This document shows positions 1 to 20,250 of a stretch of DNA of 24,805 nt, in pieces. The notes beneath the pieces are model-generated. The model was not told the origin of the DNA. It ran no database searches and saw nothing but the letters and a program-made list of their open reading frames with translations. Position 1 is the stretch's first letter; the number at the start of each line of letters is the position of its first letter. Source of the stretch: Candidatus Bathyarchaeia archaeon (lineage in GTDB: Archaea; Thermoproteota; Bathyarchaeia; TCS64); the NCBI GenBank assembly GCA_050014495.1, contig JBEKDF010000040.1, positions 1 through 24,805 on the forward strand. Direction: 5' to 3'. A program made the translations under genes and the position numbers.

Positions 1-857
1 AGGAAATCCCTAACGGTCTCAATGTAGAGATCTCTCTCCTTTGATAATGCATCGTGTCCACTCTCTCTGAATATCGCCAACCTCGATCCTCTAATCCCGC
101 GATGAATCGTCCTCGCACATACAGGTGTGACAAGGTCCCGTGCTCCAACAGTCACGAGCGTCGGAACGCGTATCTGCTTCAGCTCCCTCTTCACATCCCA
201 CGACGCAAGATTGCCGGTCACGGTGAAGGCCTCGGGTTCCCCCATCATGACCTTCAAGATCTTAACGTTGCTCGTCGTGATGGCTGATTCGTAAGGTGTC
301 ACTCGTAAGTCTGAATAGTGCCTCTGCATGAACTCTGCCACCGCCTCCTTGTACCTCGGGTCATCGAACATACCCTTCGGTTCACATTCTTCGATGGCCA
401 TGCGTTTCTCAGCCGGTAGCAAGGAGATAAGCCGGCGTAGCTCCGCGACCCACTCTGCTGTACTGGCGTACCCACTCGAGACGATGAGACTAAGGAATTC
501 CCCTGGGTGGCTGAGGACAGTCTGAAGTGCAAGACAACCACCGTAGCTGTGTCCCCATAGATGAACCCGACCCAGGCGCAGACTTCCGCGGACCGCCTCA
601 ACTTCGTCAGAGGATTGCTCAATTGTGTAGTTTCGATATGAGCTGGGCTTCTCTGATTCTCCGCACCCAAGCTGGTCATACCATACAACTCGGTATCCCA
701 ATGGCGCAAGGTCCGCCATATTGATCCCCGTCCAGTGGTCCGAGCCGGGTCCGCCGTGTAAACAGAGGATGGTGCCCTTTGAGGGTCTCCCGATTGACAC
801 GTAATATATGCGATGGCCTTGAGTCATGACGAATCCATCTTGGAACATTAGGGCCAT
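1..857 (-). CDS. Proline iminopeptidase-like alpha/beta hydrolase (S33 family), 3' end beyond window
   Basis: Not in ORF track (no stop inside the window). Manual translation from ATG 857 (alt 848): MALMFQDGFVMTQGHRIYY..LCLHGGPGS..VVWYDQLGCGES..VHLWGHSYGG..PTLVTVGARDLV..SGH; HGGPG, GxSxG nucleophile, Asp and His all present; frame stays open to base 1. Confidence 0.9.
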   Translation of the reverse strand, partial: MALMFQDGFVMTQGHRIYYVSIGRPSKGTILCLHGGPGSDHWTGINMADLAPLGYRVVWYDQLGCGESEKPSSYRNYTIEQSSDEVEAVRGSLRLGRVHLWGHSYGGCLALQTVLSHPGEFLSLIVSSGYASTAEWVAELRRLISLLPAEKRMAIEECEPKGMFDDPRYKEAVAEFMQRHYSDLRVTPYESAITTSNVKILKVMMGEPEAFTVTGNLASWDVKRELKQIRVPTLVTVGARDLVTPVCARTIHRGIRGSRLAIFRESGHDALSKERDLYIETVRDF

Positions 858-890
858 TCTAAAACACTATAGAATACTGGGGCCCTAATG
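846..890. promoter_or_regulatory. Bulged inverted repeat covering the peptidase start codons
   Basis: CATTAGGGCC (846-855) / GGCCCTAATG (881-890) perfect 10-bp arms, inner ATTCTA (856-861) / TAGAAT (870-875). Confidence 0.5.
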
Positions 891-942
891 GAATATATAT
901 CGCGTGCGTCGTCGCTACAATATATTAGGTTGTCTAAATCTG

Positions 943-1521
943 CTATTGAGAAGTAACCTGATTTGATGAGGAACTAACTAAATCATATCCACCAAAACGC
1001 ACCGAGTCACCCCTCCCGACAGCCACCCTATTCAACTCATTCGACAGAAACTCGATCAAGCTGAAGTAGTTAGGCATATCCGCCCTCACCCTCCAATCCT
1101 TCACGATTGACTCATACTTCTGCCAGAACGCGGTAACGTTCGTCGGGAATATATCGTATATGAGGTCCGCGTCTATCCAACCCCTCTTGAGGAGCACCGC
1201 TATTCCCTCGAAGTAGTTCTCAACTGAGAGGATGTTCTTCTTGGGGAACGGGTACTTCCTGTAGTAGTCCTCTGGGTCCTTCCACTCTCTCGACATTATC
1301 TCGAAGTAGCGCTCCACGAAGTCTGGGTCGCGGAACTCCTCGTATATCTGTGTGAATAGCTGGGCTTGGCGTGTATCGAGTTCCCTGTCTCTTGTTTCCT
1401 GGGTCCGTCTATTGGAGTTGATGTAGCTTCTGACTCCTATGAATGCGGCCGTTAGTGTTCCAATCACCCCAACTACTTGAGCGACGTATGCGGTCGCTTG
1501 CAGAGTAACTAAGTCAACCAT
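943..1521 (-). CDS. DUF4760-like protein with N-terminal membrane anchor (paralog 1)
   Basis: 192 aa; N-terminal hydrophobic helix, DTRQAQLFTQIY, YFEGIAVLLKRGWID, FWQK motifs typical of DUF4760-like proteins (family call from memory). Confidence 0.75.
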   Translation of the reverse strand: MVDLVTLQATAYVAQVVGVIGTLTAAFIGVRSYINSNRRTQETRDRELDTRQAQLFTQIYEEFRDPDFVERYFEIMSREWKDPEDYYRKYPFPKKNILSVENYFEGIAVLLKRGWIDADLIYDIFPTNVTAFWQKYESIVKDWRVRADMPNYFSLIEFLSNELNRVAVGRGDSVRFGGYDLVSSSSNQVTSQ

Positions 1522-1526
1522 TAATC

Positions 1527-1571
1527 ATCACTGGATTAGAGTCAGGTGGAAGTGAGGATAAGGCTATTGAG
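1527..1571 (-). repeat. Conserved upstream module, copy 1 (putative promoter/leader or recombination site)
   Basis: + strand ATCACTGGATTAGAGTCAGGTGGAAGTGAGGATAAGGCTATTGAG; 38 of 45 aligned columns identical to 2103-2146; core 1542-1562 identical to 4254-4274. Confidence 0.9.
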
Positions 1572-2097
1572 CCATTGGTCTCGGGGTCTCTGGGTGCTGC
1601 TTCTTCCATATCTCGTAAATGACGTTGTACAAATACTCCATGCCCTCAGCCATAGTTGGTCTATTCATATTTACCCTAATATCTATGAACATTGGCCCCA
1701 ATTTCTGCCAGAACACGACCACATATGCGGACATGAGGTCCTCCACCAGCGTGGGGTCTATGAAGCCCCGCATCACGAAGACCCCTAGGCCCTCGAAGAA
1801 GCTGCCGACTATGTTCACCTTCTTCCAGATCTCTGGGTTATTGGGCCCGAACTTCGAGTTGAAGTCGCTCCAATCCCTGTACTCTAGGGCGATTATGGTA
1901 TTCCACGCTTCCTGGAACTCGTATTCGCTCCACCTCTGGTAGAGGTTCATGAGGAGCTGGGCCTGTCGTGTGTCTAGTGTCTGCTTGCTGTTTCTCTGCA
2001 TGACCCTCATGTTCATCACGTAGTAGGCTGCTGCCACTAGTACCCCTGTGGCCGCCACCATGTAGTAAGCAGCCTGAATCTCAGATAGATCCACCAT
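1564..2097 (-). CDS. DUF4760-like protein with N-terminal membrane anchor (paralog 2)
   Basis: 177 aa; MVDL start, TM helix, DTRQAQLLMNLY, FFEGLGVFVMRGFID, FWQK, clearly homologous to 943-1521. Confidence 0.75.
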   Translation of the reverse strand: MVDLSEIQAAYYMVAATGVLVAAAYYVMNMRVMQRNSKQTLDTRQAQLLMNLYQRWSEYEFQEAWNTIIALEYRDWSDFNSKFGPNNPEIWKKVNIVGSFFEGLGVFVMRGFIDPTLVEDLMSAYVVVFWQKLGPMFIDIRVNMNRPTMAEGMEYLYNVIYEIWKKQHPETPRPMAQ

Positions 2098-2102
2098 AAT
2101 TA

Positions 2103-2146
2103 ATCACTGGTTAGAGTCGGGTGGAAGCGGGAATAAGATTATTGAG
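2103..2146 (-). repeat. Conserved upstream module, copy 2
   Basis: + strand ATCACTGGTTAGAGTCGGGTGGAAGCGGGAATAAGATTATTGAG; differs from copy 1 by one indel and six transitions. Confidence 0.9.
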
Positions 2147-2161
2147 TGGACATTCACTCAA
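2142..2161. promoter_or_regulatory. Near-perfect palindrome between divergent genes (candidate operator)
   Basis: TTGAGTGGA-CA-TTCACTCAA, 9-bp arms with one mismatch. Confidence 0.45.
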
Positions 2162-2226
2162 CTGCCTCCTCCTCTGAGATGCCCAGGTTTTAAGTGGCTG
2201 AGTGAGCTCGCCGTGATGGTGATATA

Positions 2227-2517
2227 ATGGACCTGGAGGAGGCGTCAAAGAAGGTCTTCGAGGATGCAATGAATCGGTTTGAGAATGATGCCATGAAGAC
2301 ACTATCAAACCAGGAGGACCGAGAGGCCCTAGCAGAGTTAATAGTTGAATGGAGACGGCTGGGTGAGAGAACGCTGTTAAAGTTGTCGATGAATCAGCCC
2401 TGGAATATGCCGTTGTATTTTGCATTGTCGGCTGCTGTTCTTAATCGTAGGGAGATCAACAGGCTCAGGAAGAGTCTGGTTACCAGCGGGAAAAACACGG
2501 CTTCATCCTCACCCTGA
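2227..2517 (+). CDS. Small alpha-helical hypothetical protein, weakly reminiscent of PolB2-associated arCOG07300-like proteins
   Basis: 96 aa ORF with GGTGA SD-like motif just upstream; EDREALAELI...P...NRREINRLRK pattern; family resemblance by eye only. Confidence 0.6.
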   Translation: MDLEEASKKVFEDAMNRFENDAMKTLSNQEDREALAELIVEWRRLGERTLLKLSMNQPWNMPLYFALSAAVLNRREINRLRKSLVTSGKNTASSSP

Positions 2518-2647
2518 GCCTCATCCTATGGGGCGGCGATATTGGCGCATAAAGGTCGGGGGCGGAGCGAGGGTGAGGCTGTAAAGCCCCACGACAACTA
2601 AACCAGTATAGGCGCCACTACTTTATAGATTTCAACGTAGAGAAGTT

Positions 2648-3379
2648 TTATTCTCTACCGGCTTCTACACCTACAACCAATATTGGGAATGGCAGAATCT
2701 CCTTGAACGCCTCTATGTCCTGGGTCACATTGCTGTATCTCGGCTCTTTATAGGTGGGAACTATGAATACCAGAGAATCAAGCTGGCCTTGCTGATACGC
2801 CCATAGCGATCTAAAAAGACTCCTATGGATCGCATCAATCAACGACCTCTCAATCTCCACCCCCGTCTTAGAGCTATATGCATCCAATCTGTACCCCGCA
2901 ACTGGGAACTTCGATACCTCGGTCTCCCAGCCAGATTTACGGAAAACCCCCTGTACAGCGTCATGATCCTCTGATGAGGAGAGGTCAGTCAGATTAGCCG
3001 CGTTTAGAATTACTTGAAGTTGTTTTTTCCTTTCAAGAAGCTCCGATGCGTTCTTGTAGCTGTAAATATGAGTATTTGAGTTAGGCCCAGACTTCATGGA
3101 GGGTGTAGTCTCCTGTTTTCTGATTGCTGTTGTACTATTGGTGAGACAGTATAGTCCTAATCCGATTCTTGTCAGTACCCGGTATTTATCGGGTATACTG
3201 GAAGAGGTGCTTTGAGGGACCATATCCGCCATCGTTGTCCCCACATCTTTCTACCTTTCTCCATATTTTTTCACTATTATTTTTTTGACTTCTGAGATAG
3301 AACCGGTACCTCCAAGTTCATTCAATGCCTCGATTATGGCGTCTTGGAGGGTGCCTCTGTCGGTGGATAAAGGTGACAT
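2648..3379 (-). pseudogene. Winged-helix + PD-(D/E)XK endonuclease (BglII/BstYI-like catalytic motif) interrupted by one in-frame TAG
   Basis: ATG 3379 reads MSPLSTDRGTLQDAIIEALNELGGTGSISEVKKIIVKKYGER, TAG at 3253-3251, then KD and continues in frame into the 2648..3244 ORF, which carries RLDAYSSKTGVEIER. Confidence 0.7.
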
Positions 3380-3483
3380 GAGAGTAATTTCATGTTTCGG
3401 CGATATATATGGTCCTAAAGTATGCTCGCACGTGGCTTAGGACAGTAAATTAAAGTAGAATAATGCAAAACAGGGTGGATGGT

Positions 3484-3905
3484 TCAAGTTTCTTTGAAGT
3501 CCGATATGTCCCCGATGGCTTTGAATCCGTCGAACCCTTCTTCGATTAGGCTCTGGTCTTTAAGCTTTTGAATGATTTTCTTAACTTCTTCATGTGCGAT
3601 GTCAGTCACGCGAGCAATCTTTGTGAGACTTTGATAATTGGAACCTTGACATGCACGCCAAATCCTAGCGGTCTTATCCTCGTCCCTATACTCATCGGGT
3701 CCCTGAAGCTAAATACATCTCCAATTGCCTGAAAATCCTTGTTGCCGTGAAAGGACTCATCGATGAGTCCCTGGTCCTTGAGCGCATAGATAATCTTCTC
3801 AACCTCAGCACGGTCGATGCCAGAGTCACGAGCGATCTTCGTTAGACTTAGGTGGCCGTAGCCTGAAGCAGCCTTCCAGACCCTTTCAACCTTGTTTATA
3901 TCCGT
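3484..3905 (-). pseudogene. Tandem double winged-helix/HTH protein, ACG in place of a start codon and a frameshift near 3700
   Basis: Frame A: KVERVWKAASGYGHLSLTKIARDSGIDRAEVEKIIYALKDQGLIDE..FQAIGD; frame B (-1): KTARIWRACQGSNYQSLTKIARVTDIAHEEVKKIIQKLKDQSLIEE..FKAIGD..stop at 3484. GGTGA SD-like motif precedes ACG at 3905. Confidence 0.75.
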
Positions 3906-4223
3906 TCTTTTTTCACCGTCTTCTATTTTGACTTATAACTATATGTCATTTTAGTGCATTCCACACTTGTATGCATCAGAACGAATATGAGATGTGACCT
4001 AAGTGAGGTTATGAGAGACTGTAGTAGAATAGACGATTTTCACCCAAATTCTCTGTAAAATCCTTCCTATTTCCTAAAATCTCCATTTTAGGCGCTATCC
4101 CCCGTTTAACGGGTGAATAGTTAAATGATGGCAAATAGATCAGTCGCCGTTCATTATATAATCTTACAGTTTGTTGTTTGGAACATAGCGGAGAGTTCCA
4201 ATTGATCAATTACATATTCCGAA

Positions 4224-4251
4224 GCTGAGCATATTCTAAGTTATAGTTGAG
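4224..4251. other. dif-like 11-6-11 candidate tyrosine recombinase site
   Basis: GCTGAGCATAT-TCTAAG-TTATAGTTGAG; left arm 8/11 to E. coli XerC arm GGTGCGCATAA, right arm 6/11 to XerD arm TTATGTTAAAT. Confidence 0.3.
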
Positions 4252-4253
4252 TA

Positions 4254-4274
4254 TCAGGTGGAAGTGAGGATAAG
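4254..4274 (-). repeat. Conserved module core, copy 3 (orphan, no downstream DUF4760-like gene)
   Basis: TCAGGTGGAAGTGAGGATAAG, exact 21-nt match to 1542-1562. Confidence 0.9.
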
Positions 4275-4440
4275 ATATTCGACCTCTTTCACCTCGCCAC
4301 CCGCACGCTAATGTGTCAAACAGTACACACGCTGAAAGCCTAAGCCGATGATTGCACATGCAACCCTCTGAACCAAATTGATTCAACTCGAATGATTGCA
4401 ACTATAACCAAGATCGATCTATTTCTCTACGGGACACCCG

Positions 4441-4599
4441 ATGTCAAAGCGAATTGATGAGGCGAAAGAAAAGAACTATGAAACGAGAGAGCACCTGCCC
4501 TACTGGATGAGTGAGCTACTCAAGATGTGCGACGAGGCTATGGAGAAGCAACCCCAACCATCTTCAACGAGAGACAACCCCACGAAATCTAAAAAGTAA
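4441..4599 (+). CDS. Small hypothetical protein (52 aa)
   Basis: Below ORF-track cutoff: MSKRIDEAKEKNYETREHLPYWMSELLKMCDEAMEKQPQPSSTRDNPTKSKK; TATA-like ACTATAA ~35 nt upstream and T-tract after the stop. Confidence 0.45.
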   Translation: MSKRIDEAKEKNYETREHLPYWMSELLKMCDEAMEKQPQPSSTRDNPTKSKK

Positions 4600-4600
4600 T

Positions 4601-4617
4601 AAAATAATTATTTTTTT
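4601..4617 (+). terminator. AT-rich palindrome with oligo-T tract
   Basis: AAAATAATTATTTT (4601-4614) perfect palindrome running into T7 directly after the stop at 4599. Confidence 0.4.
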
Positions 4618-4709
4618 ACGGACATCTGCCAACGTTCACGGATTATAGTCATGTAGAGGTAGGGATGACTCGCTTCTCTGGATCATCTACTGAATATTTC
4701 TCTATTAGG

Positions 4710-4934
4710 ATGAGCTTGACGCGCACAAACCTGTACCTGCGGCAATGGGAGGAGGCGGTCGGCACGCTGGAGAAGATCGACACCAACGAGCTGACACTGG
4801 ACACCGGAGTCCTTGAACTACCCACGGAGACGCTCCAGAAAACCAGCCTCACGGAGCTGATCAGCAGAAGAGTCGCCGTCCTCAGAACAGACGACCCAGA
4901 CCACCCATACCTGATCCGCGAAGAGAAGAACTAG
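4710..4934 (+). CDS. Small hypothetical protein convergent on the integrase
   Basis: Likely start ATG 4710 (track start 4665): MSLTRTNLYLRQWEEAVGTL...RVAVLRTDDPDHPYLIRE; stop overlaps the integrase stop (CTAG 4931-4934). Confidence 0.65.
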   Translation: MSLTRTNLYLRQWEEAVGTLEKIDTNELTLDTGVLELPTETLQKTSLTELISRRVAVLRTDDPDHPYLIREEKN

Positions 4935-5923
4935 AGCAACCCCAGCCTCGGGACAAGCGGGAGATACTCCTCCCTGAGCTCTGAGAACGGAATATGATCA
5001 TATACATCCACCGCCTCTCTACGAGAATCTCCGCGAAGTTCCTTCAGAAACTCCCTACTCATACCCGCCCTGCGAAGCTCCGTCGTCAAGAAGTGCCTGA
5101 AGCAGTGCGGGCTAAAGTGGTCCTCAAGCCGTGCACTAGAGGGGTCACTCAACCCCACCCTCTCCGCGTTACCCGACACGACCTTATACACGATGTTACG
5201 CCCAATCCGCTTACCACGATCCCCGATGAACAGAGCAGTCTCCCCATTCGCTACGTAGTCCGCCCTAACCTTCAGCCACCTACCCAGCAACACCGCTGCC
5301 TCATCATCGAAGGGCACCTTGCGGTTGCTCCTCTTCCGCTTCGGCTTCAACTGGATCCCGCCTAGACGCCAGTCGATGTCGTCTATATCCATCGAGATCA
5401 GCTCACCCTTCCGGACACCCGTCTTCGCGAATATCGCCATAATCGTCTTTTCCTGTAGGTCCAACGTAGAGTTGATGAGGGTGGACGCCTCCTCGACGCT
5501 GATCAGCTTCCTGCCCTCGGGCTCCACCCTCTTCTTGTAGGTGTTCAGGTAATGCCTCTTGAAGGCGGGGACGAGGTTCGTCTGGGTGACTTCCTCCCAG
5601 ATGAGGAAGTTGTAGAAGCCGCTCAGCGCCGTGTAGTAGTTACTGATGTTCTTGTCACTCAGCGGCTCACCATACCGGTTATGTCGTCGCTCCTTCAGGT
5701 AGTCGAGCAGAGCCTCAAGCTCATGCTTTCCCGCTAACGGCAGTGTTGAACCCAAGTTGCTGAGGAAGCTGGATATGATCCTGAGCCGCGACTCGTAGTT
5801 CTGCCAGCTCGACTTCGGGCTTCCTCTCCTCTGATAGTATTTGATGTAACGCTCGATAAGCTGCGCATCGCTAGGGAGAGGGTGACTCGACACGTTTGTC
5901 GTCTCTACTCTTTCCATGTCCAA
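4931..5923 (-). CDS. Tyrosine recombinase/integrase (XerC/D-like)
   Basis: N-terminal core-binding-like domain; KTGVRKGEL (Arg), KPKRKR (Lys), SPHCFRH (HxxR), LRGD, VDVYDH (Tyr). Confidence 0.95.
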   Translation of the reverse strand: MDMERVETTNVSSHPLPSDAQLIERYIKYYQRRGSPKSSWQNYESRLRIISSFLSNLGSTLPLAGKHELEALLDYLKERRHNRYGEPLSDKNISNYYTALSGFYNFLIWEEVTQTNLVPAFKRHYLNTYKKRVEPEGRKLISVEEASTLINSTLDLQEKTIMAIFAKTGVRKGELISMDIDDIDWRLGGIQLKPKRKRSNRKVPFDDEAAVLLGRWLKVRADYVANGETALFIGDRGKRIGRNIVYKVVSGNAERVGLSDPSSARLEDHFSPHCFRHFLTTELRRAGMSREFLKELRGDSRREAVDVYDHIPFSELREEYLPLVPRLGLL

Positions 5924-6426
5924 CCCTTCCCCGATGCTCTGATCAAGCCGTATTCGTGCAGGTTCTCGATCTGGCTGAGGATACCCTTCACGACCTCCGT
6001 ATCACGGGCATTAACCCCTAGTTTGCCTAGAATCTCTGTGGAAGTGTGGAGTCCGGGTTCTCTGAGTACCTCCACGAGTCGTTTATCATAAGTCCGCTTG
6101 CCTTTGAAGCCCTCTTCGGTGAAGACCCTGCTACGATAAACTTGTAGGTCCTCTTCCAGTTTCTCCACTAAGAGTTCTAGGTGACCTATGCGCTTGTCCT
6201 TCTCATTGATCTCCTTCCGAAGTGTAGTGTTCTCCTCGATCAGTTTGGTTCTACTGTTGTAGTTTTCGTCTTGCTCTAAGCTGAGTGAGTTCTGGACGTG
6301 GTCTATGACGAATTTCGATATCGGTACCCCGGCTTCGCTTGAGAGTGTCTTCCACTTGTCCGTTAGTTGCTGTGTTGGTGGGTAGACGTAGATGGCTCTC
6401 TTCTTGAGTGACTCGTCTTTGACCAA
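5905..6426 (-). CDS. Putative DNA-binding protein (RHH-like N-terminus, coiled coil, winged-helix-like C-terminus) coupled to the integrase
   Basis: RAIYVY strand then two helices (WKTLSSEAGVPISKFVIDHV); central heptad-rich segment; C-terminal LHEYGLIRASGKGWTW; 3' end overlaps the integrase start. Confidence 0.7.
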   Translation of the reverse strand: MVKDESLKKRAIYVYPPTQQLTDKWKTLSSEAGVPISKFVIDHVQNSLSLEQDENYNSRTKLIEENTTLRKEINEKDKRIGHLELLVEKLEEDLQVYRSRVFTEEGFKGKRTYDKRLVEVLREPGLHTSTEILGKLGVNARDTEVVKGILSQIENLHEYGLIRASGKGWTWKE

Positions 6427-6478
6427 GATTCTCTGGTTTTGTGTTCTGTTTCTGGGTATTTAGCAGTTACTAGTAAAA

Positions 6479-6563
6479 TGGTGCAGGGGGTGGGGTTCGA
6501 ACCCACGGAGGACTAACCATCAGGTCCTAAGCCTGACCCCTTTGGCCACTCGGGAACCCCTGC
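6479..6563 (-). tRNA. tRNA-Leu (anticodon TAG), CCA encoded, no intron
   Basis: GCAGGGG acceptor stem pairs with CCCCTGC-A-CCA; anticodon arm TCAGG-CTTAGGA-CCTGA; long variable arm; GGTTCGAACCC T-arm. Confidence 0.97.
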
Positions 6564-6747
6564 AGCACCCACAAATGTGATCGGGGGTAATTTAAAAGGT
6601 ATCTGAGGTAGTCAACCCTTTGATATTTTGTTAAATTTAATAATTCTTCATTATTAAGCACGTGACGCAGCCCCTAAAAATCCAAAACCAAGCATCCAGG
6701 GGGAAAGAGATAAGGTTCCCTGGGGCTAATTCAAACGCGTGTGTACT

Positions 6748-7380
6748 ATGGAAATCAAATGGTTAGGCCATGCGAGCTGGATGGTAAAGGCTGCGGGAAA
6801 GGTCATCTATATCGACCCTTATGAGGGGGAGTACATCCCTAAGGGTGAGCTTGTACTCGTGAGCCACTCCCATCAGGATCACTGTAAAGAAGATAAACTG
6901 AAGCAGGCTCTCGGTCCCTCAACGATCTTCATTGCTCCAGCTGACTGCAACAAGGCGGGAGTGAAACCCACAACCCTCAATCCTGGTGACATGATGAAGA
7001 TCGGGGACGTAGAGGTCGAGGCCGTTTGGGCGTATAATATGAAGAGGTTCAGAAGTCCAGGAGTTCCCTTCCACCCTAAGGGATTTGGCGTCGGGTACAT
7101 CATACGAGCTGAGGGAAAGACCATCTACCATACGGGGGATACTGAGTTCATCCCCGAGTTGAAGACTTTGAAGGGCATCGATGTTATGCTCTGCGCAACC
7201 GGCGGCACATACACGATGGATAACGACGAGGCCGCGGATCTCGTCCTCGCGATAAAGCCAAAGGTCGCTATACCCATGCATATTTGGGACACCGACCCGA
7301 TGGTATTCAAGAAGAAGGTGGAGGCGGGCGGTGCCACCAAGGTCGTAATCCTCAAGCCCGGTGACATCTACAAACCTTAG
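6748..7380 (+). CDS. MBL-fold metallo-hydrolase (UPF0173/UlaG-like)
   Basis: MEIKWLGHAS, IYIDPY, SHSHQDH, IYHTGDT, AIPMH motifs; ATG 6748 preferred over track start 6739. Confidence 0.9.
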   Translation: MEIKWLGHASWMVKAAGKVIYIDPYEGEYIPKGELVLVSHSHQDHCKEDKLKQALGPSTIFIAPADCNKAGVKPTTLNPGDMMKIGDVEVEAVWAYNMKRFRSPGVPFHPKGFGVGYIIRAEGKTIYHTGDTEFIPELKTLKGIDVMLCATGGTYTMDNDEAADLVLAIKPKVAIPMHIWDTDPMVFKKKVEAGGATKVVILKPGDIYKP

Positions 7381-15748: not shown

Positions 15749-16555
15749 ATGACGGCGATACTCAAGTGGGCTGGGGGGAAGAGGAGCCTGATACAGGCCA
15801 TCCTCGCAACATTCCCGCCTGATTACGAGGAACGCCCGTATCACGAGCCCTTCATAGGTGGGGGCGCCGTATTCTTCACCGTCAAACCTAAGAGAGGAAC
15901 CGTGAACGATGTCAACCCACGACTGATAAACTTCTACAAGATCGTGAGAGACGAGCCAAACAAGCTCATCGCAGAGGCGTCAACCTATAGATACGATAGG
16001 GATACCTACTATAAGCTAAGGGATAGGTTCAACGAGGGTAGACTCCCCCCGATAGAGGACGCCGCCCTCCTTCTCTACTTGAATAAGACGGGGTATAACG
16101 GTCTCTACAGGGTTAACAGCAGAGGCGTCTTCAATGTCCCCTTTGGTACATACAAGAACCCCACAATTGTCCCAAAGGAAGACATCTACTCCGCGAGCAA
16201 GGCACTGAGACGGGTGGAGATCAAGAACCAAGACTTTTCCTATCTCCTAGATTCCACCGATGAGGGAGATGTCGTCTACCTAGACCCTCCCTACGAGCCT
16301 CTCAGCAGGACATCCAACTTCAACACTTACAGCCCAAATGGCTTCCCCTGGGCTGAACAGATTAGACTAAGCAAGATGATCCGCGAACTCGATGCACGCG
16401 GCATCCTATTCGTCCTAAGTAACAGTGAACCGGTCAAGAAGCTCTATAAGGGCTTCAATACCACGACCGTGCACGCCAACCGCAGCATAAACATGAAGAC
16501 CACCGGTAGAGGTCCGATAAAGGAGATCATAGTAACCAACATTAAAAAAAAGTAG
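15749..16555 (+). CDS. DNA adenine methyltransferase, Dam/D12 family
   Basis: LKWAGGK, EPFIGGG, NGLYRVN, FNVPFG, YLDPPY, LSNS. Confidence 0.93.
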   Translation: MTAILKWAGGKRSLIQAILATFPPDYEERPYHEPFIGGGAVFFTVKPKRGTVNDVNPRLINFYKIVRDEPNKLIAEASTYRYDRDTYYKLRDRFNEGRLPPIEDAALLLYLNKTGYNGLYRVNSRGVFNVPFGTYKNPTIVPKEDIYSASKALRRVEIKNQDFSYLLDSTDEGDVVYLDPPYEPLSRTSNFNTYSPNGFPWAEQIRLSKMIRELDARGILFVLSNSEPVKKLYKGFNTTTVHANRSINMKTTGRGPIKEIIVTNIKKK

Positions 16556-16798
16556 GGTAATTTACCTAATCAGAAATAGTAACTCTTCCGATGAAGGTAT
16601 CTTTAAATCACGTGTGTAAGAACAAAATAAACCGAAGACCTTCCACCACACCTCCACGATGAATTAAAATAGTTAAACCCGCTAAACAGTAAAAACAGCT
16701 AAAAAAGCGAAAATGTGGCGATGGCAATAGACCCCCTTTGTACATGCGCTAGGAAACAGACCCCCAACTATTATCAAGCCAAACGAGCAACAGCTACC

Positions 16799-19923: not shown

Positions 19924-20250
19924 ATGAGGTTCGTCCAACTTCGGTCCCTAAGGGACCTTATAATGCTCGTCGCATCTTCCCCCTCTAGCGGGGTAATCCA
20001 GCACCTAGTCAACGGTTCTTCACATCTCTACTTCCTGGTGGGAGGGACGTTACATGAGATGTTCCTTTATTTCGTCAAGGAGAAGGATCAAATCAGTGGT
20101 AATTTCATTACTTACAACAGTTATAGTGGAGAAATCGGTACGTCAGAAAAGGTGCAACATGAGCCAAATGTAAGCAGTTTCCCCGTTGTAGAGATAATAA
20201 ATCAGGATCTGCTTCCAGCGGATCTATTGAGTAGACTGGATGGCCTCTAG
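19924..20250 (+). CDS. Conserved hypothetical protein (crenarchaeal-type)
   Basis: 108 aa, first gene of the TBP cluster; VQLRSLRDL...PVVEI pattern recalled from TACK hypothetical proteins. Confidence 0.7.
   Translation: MRFVQLRSLRDLIMLVASSPSSGVIQHLVNGSSHLYFLVGGTLHEMFLYFVKEKDQISGNFITYNSYSGEIGTSEKVQHEPNVSSFPVVEIINQDLLPADLLSRLDGL

Follow-up and report, generated by a model that had tools for sequence, protein, structure and literature searches.

CRISPR spacer acquisition is proposed to descend from casposons; to our knowledge, the casposons described so far are rare and have one or a few targets in a genome. According to excerpts of the casposase literature, casposases require a 13-15 bp segment, which is duplicated, together with an adjacent leader, elements stack in tandem arrays, and excision can lead back to one site (PMC5137440, PMC8464041, PMC4779613, PMC10359463). 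The excerpted description of a proposed family 5 is of stand-alone Cas1 proteins near type I-A, without a C-terminal HTH and mostly without PolB, whose elements have inverted ends (Salgado et al. 2022, PMC9755687). Integrons and CALINs, archaeal integrons included, are described as rows of one- or two-gene units with a conserved site at each joint (Ghaly et al. 2022, PMC9668308).

The DNA considered here, called the window, is a stretch of 24,805 nt from the 3.1-Mb genome of a peat-derived Candidatus Bathyarchaeia archaeon (Table 1). It contains copies of a short module. The 13-bp core of this module is also present where elements with inverted G4/C4 ends are joined, and a stand-alone Cas1 is encoded in some of these elements. 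Since the core is common to the joints of Cas1 elements, we consider it the likely landing site of polymerase-less, casposon-like transposons, whose Cas1 insertions likely help to build the gene rows. Because the plain gene units are mostly without a duplication signal, the role of Cas1 as row builder is put no more firmly than that.

Table 1. Features of the window (nucleotide positions)
Feature	Position	Strand	Basis or remark
Proline iminopeptidase-family gene	1..857	-	TIGR01250 above cut-off; off left edge
Decayed third DUF4760 start, GC run ~901-915	895..941	-	Resembles start of a paralogue on contig C29
Third module, left block; holds gene A stop codon	942..950	-	Run contigs
DUF4760 gene A, 192 aa, cargo	943..1521	-	ORF, Pfam
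Module copy 1; holds gene B stop codon	1527..1571	-	Sequence comparison
Copy 1 Shine-Dalgarno-like GTGAT	1527-1531	-	Sequence
Copy 1 conserved 15-nt arm	1542-1556	-	Sequence comparison
Copy 1 13-bp core	1557-1569	-	Candidate casposase landing site; TATA-box position
DUF4760 gene B, 177 aa, cargo	1564..2097	-	ORF, Pfam
Module copy 2, degenerate; 13-bp core 2132-2144	2103..2146	-	Sequence comparison
96-aa ORF, matches no known family	2227..2517	+	Profile search
Weak type II restriction-endonuclease-like ORF, 198 aa	2648..3244	-	Pfam BglII E 0.014, below cut-off
Two overlapping small winged-helix-like frames, ~50% alike	3484..3932	-	Probably decayed
'Orphan': rare 13-bp core 4269-4281 and 15-nt arm 4254-4268	4254..4281	-
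Tyrosine integrase, tRNA-Leu island	4931..5923	-	Not IntI
tRNA-Leu(TAG), likely integrase attachment site	6479..6563	-

The coordinates and counts of a sequence-only reading of the window are all borne out. The two module copies (1527-1571 and 2103-2146) are identical at 38 of 45 positions, with one gap and six substitutions, all transitions, and the gap between genes A and B (1522-1563) is 42 nt long. GCTATTGAG is present at 942-950 and 1563-1571, TATTGAG at 2140-2146, and CTATTGAG also at 20224. The exact 21-nt core recurs at 4254-4274, and the integrase ORF ends 657 nt from it. Both genes belong to DUF4760 (Pfam E 1e-15 and 8e-14), and their proteins are divergent (33% identical).

This pair is a small piece of a genome-wide module system, whose repetition exceeds chance by far. 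The 21-nt core occurs 73 times exactly in the 3.1-Mb genome and 171 times with up to 3 mismatches; the reversed core and five shuffles gave no match. A weight matrix set to at least 16 bits finds 196 module sites, and none in the reversed genome. Close neighbouring modules nearly always share their orientation (114/119), with a spacing of 80 to 2,000 nt (mode 550-650). A DUF4760 start follows 94 of the 196 sites. A check proposed with the sequence-only reading, whether the module also precedes unrelated genes, was run, and it does; the proline iminopeptidase family, with 19 members, is its most frequent neighbour other than DUF4760.

DUF4760 is the favourite cargo of the module units. The family has expanded to 92 hits in this one genome, 86 of them full-length open frames. 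The gene B protein is predicted by a model to be all-helical, with a long hydrophobic N-terminal helix. The predicted DUF4760 fold reaches a pLDDT of 92.6 with a 30-sequence input and 44 with a single sequence, and a Foldseek search with the 30-sequence model gave no significant match (best E 0.17). The literature found for DUF4760 is unrelated.

One module of the window is hidden by the assembly. Positions 942-950 had been taken for a separate short repeat that brackets the units, and are instead the remnant of a third module. This assembly misses 55 bases between 941 and 942: they are present in contigs of six of eight public runs (X1-X6), the left part of them is present in X7, the contig of X8 ends at 941, and the assembled 941/942 junction is seen in none of the eight. 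The 55 bases comprise the complete third module and a short, dead DUF4760 start; in metagenome locus L079, a full module is likewise followed by the decayed stub seen here at 895..941.

On the gene strand, the consensus of the core is C(A/C)ATAG(C/T)CTTATC. To its right lies one of two interchangeable arms, either the module arm, which leads to a ribosome-binding site and a start codon, or CCCCAAACCC; to its left lies either a gene end or GGGTTTGGGG. Flanks change partners at the core, and the module does mark exchangeable gene units, as had been suggested. In 14 pairs of sites with near-identical upstream flanks, positions -8 to 0 are shared (7 mismatches, where unrelated sequences should give 54), whereas sharing is lost at positions 8-21 (30 vs 31.7), a pattern predicted by insertion directly after the core. 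Where the near-identical flanks lie downstream (18 pairs), sharing at positions 8-21 is partial (22 mismatches, between 12.9 and 40.8), as predicted by deletions between repeats. These 18 derive from 26 in the pooled test, after two artefact pairs were dropped and each site was used once; under the strict filter, this genome alone yields none.

The core recurs in a second setting. Some elements bounded by CCCCAAACCC and GGGTTTGGGG encode Cas1 and have the same 13-mer on both flanks. In this genome, a right end adjoins a left end at 13 junctions and a module at 11, with no such junction of either class in the reversed control. Rules that use a single end also pick up spurious sites (a lone left end is called 28 times in the genome and 10 times in the control, a right end plus the other arm 15 and 4 times). 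The right-end/core pattern is found in 26 of 71 family genomes vs 2 control hits, and such an end is found no more than 2.5 kb away from 7 of the 10 cas1 hits of this genome, compared with 5.9% of random points. Untemplated 'written' C/A tails were considered and rejected, since the tracts turned out to be paired inverted ends around Cas1.

Individual elements show the expected arrangement of repeats and ends. In genome G081, a perfect 13-bp direct repeat lies outside the CCCCAAACCC/GGGTTTGGGG ends of an element whose Cas1 is 69% identical to the intact Cas1 of this genome. In G016, a 3.4-kb Cas1 element without any ORF longer than 383 aa has two identical flanking cores. Terminal inverted repeats, short and of low complexity, surround cas1 in G081 and at three places in G016 (C13, C10, and C20). 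Among 23 end-to-end elements, the cores are identical at positions -4 to 0 in 12 vs 6.6 after shuffling (p 0.007), and of 23 rare cores at right ends, 3 are matched by an identical core upstream, with 0.26 expected; positions -6 and -5 show no excess identity (13/23 vs 12.9). Going by these comparisons, end-bounded elements do have a target-site duplication, whose left border in this genus is placed only approximately.

The Cas1 proteins form a distinct clade (support 100/100, in a tree of Bathyarchaeia rows only). Three residues were checked, and the catalytic E, H, and one D are kept in 9/10, 9/9, and 8/9 of the rows that cover them. The best solved-structure match is 4N06 (E 2e-19), followed by casposase 6OPM (E 5e-12); the proteins here have ~340 aa, vs 431. 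Only one of nine hits in this genome is full-length, the intact copy on contig C80 (1669-2646, minus strand). Cas2 is not found in any of the four genomes searched, no PolB is found among 34 ORFs chosen from nine Cas1 loci, and loci of the clade show no repeat array, since the single candidate repeat proved to be a stretch of N. Viral contigs yielded neither an exact match to the core nor a confirmed Cas1 relative.

Within the window, the region between the left edge and the 'orphan' site looks like such an insertion. The core variant of the 'orphan' site accounts for only 2 of the 235 cores in the genome, and its second copy is 4.3 kb away, just left of the window on contig C91, where it abuts a casposon-type right end, GGGTTTGGGG. 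This end and core follow the proline iminopeptidase-family gene that runs over the window's edge. C91 was joined to the window through an exact 122-nt overlap, and contigs of runs X4, X5, and X8 show the same 39 letters left of position 1. Identity between the two copies begins exactly at the first base of the 13-mer, and a 28-bp direct repeat (far copy 4254..4281) brackets ~4.3 kb. The 'orphan' site is spanned by a 2,950-nt contig of run X4 and by locus L100. Positions 4254-4274, once proposed as an empty receptor, make more sense as one half of a landing-site duplication, the half at the far side of a 4.3-kb insert, and the rare-core pair reads as a putative target-site duplication around both DUF4760 genes. 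The unit has the duplicate and a right end only, with no left end. Three other copies of its 96-aa ORF were found, one of them a fragment 50 nt upstream of the intact C80 cas1. The restriction-endonuclease-like ORF, which also matches PADLOC REase_II (E 8e-4), is cargo of a unit spanning 4253 to 2147.

In the mechanism we propose, Cas1 would first insert units at the core and thereby duplicate it. Units that start with, or carry, a module arm would make two complete landing sites from one, so that sites would multiply in a single orientation; the 4.3-kb unit with its two DUF4760 genes would be one such insert. Units would then be lost or reshuffled by deletion or excision between direct repeats, a process proposed to have erased most duplication signals. 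Finally, the module would double as promoter and translation start, and a gene landing behind it would be expressed.

Several results weigh against a general role of Cas1 in the rows. Among plain module-to-module units, rare cores are repeated upstream in 6 of 147 (3.9 expected). Adjacent left blocks are identical in 22 of 117 cases in this genome vs 12% at random, their mean mismatch being 2.26 vs 2.33; the pooled figure is 74/240 vs 63 (p 0.03), a difference confounded by genome. Plain DUF4760 units have no inverted ends, and of 26 end-to-end intervals, three contain an inner module and two a DUF4760 gene. The Cas1 clade has no match in the module-bearing genomes G005, G013, G141, and G189 or in the single-contig G021, and is present in G081 and G086, where the module is absent. 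Across 18 genomes of the genus, the module count correlates with cas1 hits (rho 0.70) and more strongly with assembly size (0.79), values for kin that are not independent. A fuller version of the proposal, in which a Cas1 without polymerase or Cas2 builds integron-like gene arrays, the landing pad is the promoter, each unit brings a new pad, and one membrane-anchored family has been amplified to ~90 variants, is offered only tentatively.

The strongest alternative holds that the module is the ancestral promoter/leader of DUF4760, which multiplied as genes were duplicated and as its copies underwent homologous recombination or slippage with one another, and that Cas1 elements use it as a safe target and build no rows. 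We regard it as unlikely, though a good deal speaks for it. A module site is present at 93 of 111 DUF4760 5' ends, most of the others having a degenerate site, and DUF4760 paralogues are mosaics with breakpoints within the gene start; a DUF4760-like MV(D/E) stub also opens many unrelated genes. The missing duplication signal of plain units and the arrays in genomes without a Cas1-clade match point the same way. The core starts ~38-41 nt ahead of the ATG, within an interval enriched for TTTATA-type boxes in 1,266 other genes, and this position fits an archaeal TATA-like box (~25-30 nt before the transcription start), although the sequence is non-canonical. Judged from this placement, the module probably carries expression signals. 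A bacterial promoter/terminator scan stayed at chance level with models that do not cover archaeal promoters. However, ordinary genes show no upstream enrichment of CTTATC, unrelated gene ends carry the core's left half, with a stop codon inside it at 25 of the 196 sites, and the upstream-sharing pairs diverge right after the core, with arm mismatches at background, which homology-driven exchange would avoid. The window unit, moreover, begins with a module arm and yet is bracketed by a core that is unique to it in the genome. The null explanation of the sequence-only reading, a duplicated promoter/leader, is partly right, the module lying at TATA and Shine-Dalgarno positions, but a promoter alone leaves the core-sharing inverted-repeat elements unexplained.

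A second alternative, that some other site-specific recombinase swaps units at the core through circles, integron-fashion, while casposons share the site, seems to us quite improbable. It would account for an exchange located between positions -1 and ~+11, for the common orientation of neighbours, for a left block that moves with the upstream unit, and for variation that is not linked across the core (mutual information is at most 0.04 across it and up to 0.30 within). Against it, resolvase-family serine recombinases have no match in this genome, reverse transcriptases none in five of five genomes, and tyrosine recombinases none in the module-bearing G011, G015, G018, G004, and G021; of the mobility families represented in the 1,098 ORFs that neighbour sites, just tRNA-type integrases, IS transposases, and Cas1 recur. 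Nor is there a hairpin at the junctions.

Known kinds of recombination site were also compared with the module. For a loxP-like site (arms TTANNNTCA/TGANNNTAA, 8-bp spacer), the exchange falls left of the spacer or at its start, and other genera retain just the core and CTCA. The arm of the module bears what we take to be a dif/Xer-like resemblance; such a site was rejected for want of a second arm and of any tyrosine recombinase that tracks the module. An attC-like hairpin, or pairing of own end with own leader in a circle, gave no signal, since 199 junctions folded no better than shuffled ones on either strand, with linear or circular pairing. A tRNA-derived site was likewise discarded, the best match to 41 tRNAs being 16/28 and the shuffled mean 15.5.

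The idea that the module is a substrate of the integrase encoded at 4931-5923, which would use 4254-4274 as receptor, draws on the distance of 657 nt between this integrase and a module and on a different tyrosine integrase in G002 that is divergent from a long module array (71 bits on TIGR02249). It is highly improbable: only 14 of 196 module sites have a tyrosine recombinase match of any kind at 5 kb or less, integrase homologues occur in 6 of 71 family genomes, sit beside tRNA-Leu(TAG) where a tRNA is detectable (G016 and G099), and include a 91% identical copy in G016 with no module in the 19-kb stretch examined, and G086 and G099 have the integrase but no module match. The module, when checked, does not track this integrase family, and by sequence comparison the integrase is a bystander. 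The Rfam scan of 800-7000 found the tRNA-Leu only, and contig C31 has, close to one of its ends, a copy of the 3' part of tRNA-Leu(TAG).

Insertion by Cas1, the reading we favor, matters because the same 13-bp core is found with a Cas1 clade close to the CRISPR type and in ~200 gene-start modules. Enzyme, end sequence, and target are now concrete enough to ask if Cas1, unaided, is able to assemble whole genes into repeat-insert-repeat arrays. If so, the integrase-less cassette rows of Bathyarchaeia would have a named enzyme, one that would be a compact site-specific integrase for kilobase cargo and would, much as in CRISPR, naturally write whole genes as 'spacers' into a site that renews itself. 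Titles and abstract openings of the literature on Bathyarchaeia with integrons, gene cassettes, or casposons describe no such arrays.

How does this system compare with those already known? As in integrons, in the excerpted accounts, units share one orientation, stop codons overlap the site, and unit order differs between genomes; unlike there, most of the module lies ahead of the gene and not after it, and we found no IntI (the local integrase scores 26 bits on TIGR02249 vs a cut-off of 265), no folding attC, and no attI near the integrase. The earlier notion of an integron-like system with a non-IntI recombinase thus survives in its layout of exchangeable, co-oriented units without IntI or attC, but not in its choice of the neighbouring tyrosine recombinase as enzyme. 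With casposon families 1 and 2, as portrayed in excerpts, the elements share a Cas1 integrase, terminal inverted repeats, a 13-15 bp duplicated target with leader, tandem stacking with a common duplicate, and single-site excision (PMC4046053, PMC4779613, PMC5137440, PMC6614799, PMC8464041, PMC10359463). Cas1 here stands alone, outside a cas operon, with conserved catalytic residues, as in casposons; the family B DNA polymerase of families 1-4 was not found, the ends are short and of low complexity, many units have ordinary cargo and no Cas1, most units have no inverted ends, and the target, present in ~200 copies, is in promoter position and not tRNA-like. Compared by description only, family 5 is alike in its stand-alone Cas1 with intact catalytic residues, its inverted ends, and its lack of an HTH and mostly of PolB, and the similarity ranking is compatible with it; the excerpted text gives no target site, duplication, Bathyarchaeia, or gene arrays (PMC9755687). 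Finally, the rows resemble a CRISPR array, as excerpted, in having a repeat that Cas1 insertion would duplicate beside a leader (PMC5137440), but no Cas2 was found, and the units are gene-sized and unequal in length, each with a leader arm of its own.

The module, a repeat of about 45 nt that precedes DUF4760 genes and contains a core (13-bp or 21-nt form) and a 15-nt arm, was first described in a sequence-only reading, whose coordinates and counts were re-derived on the window and all proved correct. The window corresponds to contig C40; the genome totals 3.1 Mb in 92 contigs, and the sequencing runs containing the window are peat or wetland metagenomes. In this genome the 21-nt core occurs 73 times without mismatch and 171 times when up to 3 mismatches are allowed (0 in reversed and shuffled controls), and a module weight matrix finds 196 sites versus 0 in the control. 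The genome was assembled from a metagenome and is 7.5% contaminated, so co-assembled strains may supply some of these copies. Among 185,579 species genomes, Bathyarchaeia records account for 52 of the 53 loci with the exact core. Within the genus, 13 of the 17 further genomes have the core, against none of the 23 examined from other genera; a shorter form occurs in 40 of the 71 family genomes.

Module sites less than 2 kb apart share orientation in 114 of 119 cases, mostly at a spacing of 550-650 nt. Of the 196 sites, 94 are followed by a DUF4760 start, 28 by another ORF and 19 by a dead MVD-like stub; for the remaining sites the next 120 nt of that strand are empty (52) or the contig ends (3). 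The 28 other ORFs show that the module also stands before unrelated genes, a point that the earlier reading had proposed to check; another genome, G012, has 14 module sites and zero DUF4760 matches. A diverged module type, its core read as CCATACTCTTTTCTT and followed by CACTTC, stands before DUF4760 and other genes at four loci (L225, L238, L239 and L371, in genomes G021 and G141); the single-contig G021 has 0 matches to tyrosine recombinases and 0 to the Cas1 clade of the end-bounded elements. Many arrays also hold an ORF-less unit of 80-100 nt, and the window holds a second dispersed repeat (Table).

Coordinates of module-related and neighbouring features
Feature	Location	Strand	Remark
ORF-less core-repeat unit	C85 ~1147-1229	minus	3-4 degenerate core-like repeats ~30 nt apart
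ORF-less core-repeat unit	C7 91908-91989; L010 1398-1494; also L031, L035		
Second dispersed repeat, ~95 bp	window 2499-2602		includes degenerate copies of the right half of the core; at least 8 other matches in the genome, more in relatives
Short imperfect A-rich direct repeats	window 16667-16712		intergenic gap
Dam-like DNA methylase ORF	window 15749-16555		motifs judged by eye; far from the restriction-endonuclease-like ORF 2648-3244
Island tRNA-Leu region	window 6467-6563		loose end of run contigs at 6467
Copy of tRNA-Leu 3' end	C31 32969-33005		close to contig end
tRNA-Leu(CAG)	C21 20243-20334		97% identical
CAP12/Pycsar-type TIR-domain protein	L343 670-1497		Cas1-element cargo, defence-like
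Weak Shedu-like nuclease	L329 5605-6288		Cas1-element cargo, defence-like
Provirus-like gene block	L346 2028-5316 (C18)		weak capsid match; between tRNA-Pro integrase and truncated cas1

The units proved exchangeable, as had been proposed, since their flanks swap partners at the module core. Positions are numbered on the gene strand with CTTATCC as 1-7, and a flank comparison of 527 distinct sites, each used once, yielded 14 upstream-sharing and 18 downstream-sharing pairs. Positions -8 to 0 follow the upstream flank (7 mismatches in upstream-sharing pairs versus 54 expected if unrelated) and do not follow the downstream flank (63 versus 70 in downstream-sharing pairs). In upstream-sharing pairs, positions 8-21 differ as unrelated sequence would (30 mismatches versus 31.7); downstream-sharing pairs have them in common in part (22, versus 12.9 if shared and 40.8 if unrelated). 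The likelihood does not discriminate among exchange points between -1 and about +11. Module variation is linked inside each block, but not from one side of the core to the other. A folding comparison shows no hairpin at module junctions. Breakpoints also occur within the gene start of DUF4760 paralogues, indicating that ordinary homologous exchange is at work as well.

None of the eight run assemblies covering the window shows the junction 941/942 as assembled there: six have an extra 55 bases at this point, one shows part of that insert, and one stops. The insert completes a third module and adds a short dead DUF4760 start; thus positions 942-950, once read as a separate short repeat, are rather part of this third module. 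A second allele, present in three runs, joins a truncated core to a GC run at this very point, and in a metagenome locus (L079), where the peptidase gene, stub and module recur, another small gene stands upstream. Together, the insert, the second allele and this locus suggest that the window's join was probably made in assembly from two alleles. The joint itself is variable in nature. GC runs lie at truncation points in the window (901-915) and genome-wide, with GCGCGCGC counted 828 times on both strands; they also truncate modules and make the second allele.

Truncated module sites have GGGTTTGGGG to the left or CCCCAAACCC to the right, or GT/CA variants. Between the right and left ends, the inverted termini (G4/C4 type) of casposon-like elements, there are 13 right-end/left-end junctions, along with 11 right-end/module junctions; both counts are 0 in the reversed control, in which the rule for detecting lone ends yields false positives. 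Cas1 emerged from a clustering of 1,098 ORFs near module sites, and such an end is found no more than 2.5 kb from 7 of the 10 cas1 matches in the genome, versus 5.9% of random points. In G016 and G012, cas1 lies between end junctions and forms a tandem row with units of 0.6-7 kb that lack Cas1; the row terminates in a module. The repeat length is fixed at 13 bp by an element in G081 whose Cas1 is 69% identical: it shares these ends, and its direct repeat, of other sequence, is perfect over 13 bp; in the window's genus, the repeated 13-mer is module positions -6 to +6. In G232, the 13-mer adjoining one element is nearly palindromic and leads into CTCA, with which the module arm begins. Across the family, 26 of the 71 genomes show the right-end/core pattern (control, 2 matches). 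End-to-end elements show a duplication signal at -4 to 0 (12 of 23 versus 6.6, p 0.007) and none at -6 and -5. This Cas1 clade stands apart from the family's CRISPR-type Cas1 (support 100/100), and its checked catalytic residues are conserved. Cas2 was not found in the 4 genomes searched, nor PolB among 34 ORFs from Cas1 loci.

The DUF4760 genes of the window appear to lie within such a bracket. The end of contig C91 overlaps the window start by 122 identical bases, and run contigs have the same 39 letters left of window position 1. Past its peptidase gene, C91 has GGGTTTGGGG and then a core variant shared by no more than 2 of 235 cores. Its second copy is window 4269-4281, within the 'orphan' core and arm (4254-4281); from the 13-mer's first base onwards, the two are identical over 28 bp. 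The rare pair and the right end suggest that both genes lie in a stretch bracketed like an insertion that duplicated its target, in which a transposon right end closes one side and the module arm acts as left end. The arm itself may be the genuine left end, or a deletion reaching back to an inner module may have removed the true one. Positions 4254-4274, formerly proposed as an empty or receptor site, would instead belong to the second copy of the rare core. A similar bracket of 4.0 kb is present on C15, with a core variant that occurs 4 times.

The neighbouring tyrosine integrase (4931-5923), once proposed as the module's enzyme, is a bystander: its homologues occur in 6 of the 71 family genomes and adjoin tRNA-Leu(TAG) in both other genomes with a detectable tRNA, and no tyrosine recombinase match was found in the module-bearing G011, G015, G018, G004 and G021. 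Two genomes have a homologue and no module match. The G016 integrase, 91% identical, matches the window solely from 4674 rightwards, with no module in the 19 kb examined, and only 14 of the 196 module sites have a tyrosine recombinase match of any kind within 5 kb. An integron-integrase profile ruled the protein out as IntI. The loose end of run contigs, the tRNA-end copy on C31 and tRNA-Leu(CAG) on C21 likely represent the other boundary of the integrase island and a paralogue.

DUF4760 has 92 matches in the genome, at a median pairwise identity of 31%, and 86 of 130 profile matches are full-length open frames. The paralogues join about four N-terminal anchor types to diverse C-terminal parts genome-wide (e.g. 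C50, C72, C74, C75, C77, C84), and several are translationally coupled pairs without an intervening module. For the predicted model (window genes 943-1521 and 1564-2097; pLDDT 92.6), the top rows of two structure searches are the helical C-terminal part of the plant immune proteins EDS1/PAD4/SAG101 (Foldseek E 0.17-0.6; VIA-align Z 9.7, rmsd 3.5 over 122 residues, next unrelated row Z 6.7). This likeness of a model is under the threshold for helical bundles and serves as a lead only.

What sequence establishes is a common core, interchangeable arms, Cas1 within some end-bounded elements and 13-bp repeats around some. In the mechanism we consider most likely, Cas1 would insert at the core, units starting with or carrying the module arm would renew the landing site, and deletions between repeats would remove units and scramble cores. 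The module would also be a promoter and translation start, because its core begins about 40 nt before the ATG, where other genes have a TATA-type box, and a GTGA motif follows. Alternatively, the module may be a family promoter spread by homology that casposons merely target. Several findings count against the Cas1 mechanism: plain module-to-module units are without inverted ends and have at most a faint duplication signal; a module lies inside only 3, and DUF4760 inside 2, of 26 end-to-end elements; several module-bearing genomes have no match to this Cas1 clade, and 2 genomes with that clade lack the module. Module count correlates with cas1 matches (0.70) and, more strongly, with assembly size (0.79).

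The proposed insertion by Cas1 at the core has a parallel in casposases, which are described as requiring a duplicated segment and a leader and as stacking in tandem (PMC5137440, PMC4779613). One is reported to make a 13-bp duplicate and to tolerate varied ends (PMC8464041), another to need only five terminal bases (PMC6614799), and casposon excision in vivo to leave a single site (PMC10359463). Module rows resemble integrons in layout, and to that extent the earlier integron-like proposal stands, but they fail the tests for IntI and attC. In its probable chemistry the system resembles a CRISPR leader-repeat; module arrays fail the spacer-length test. The end-bounded elements pass the casposon tests except for PolB and, compared by description, resemble the proposed family 5 casposons (PMC9755687). 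In their anatomy, plain DUF4760 units do not qualify as casposons. No paper on such gene arrays was found in the open-access full-text literature. The module system is real and genome-wide, a new variation on the casposon theme.
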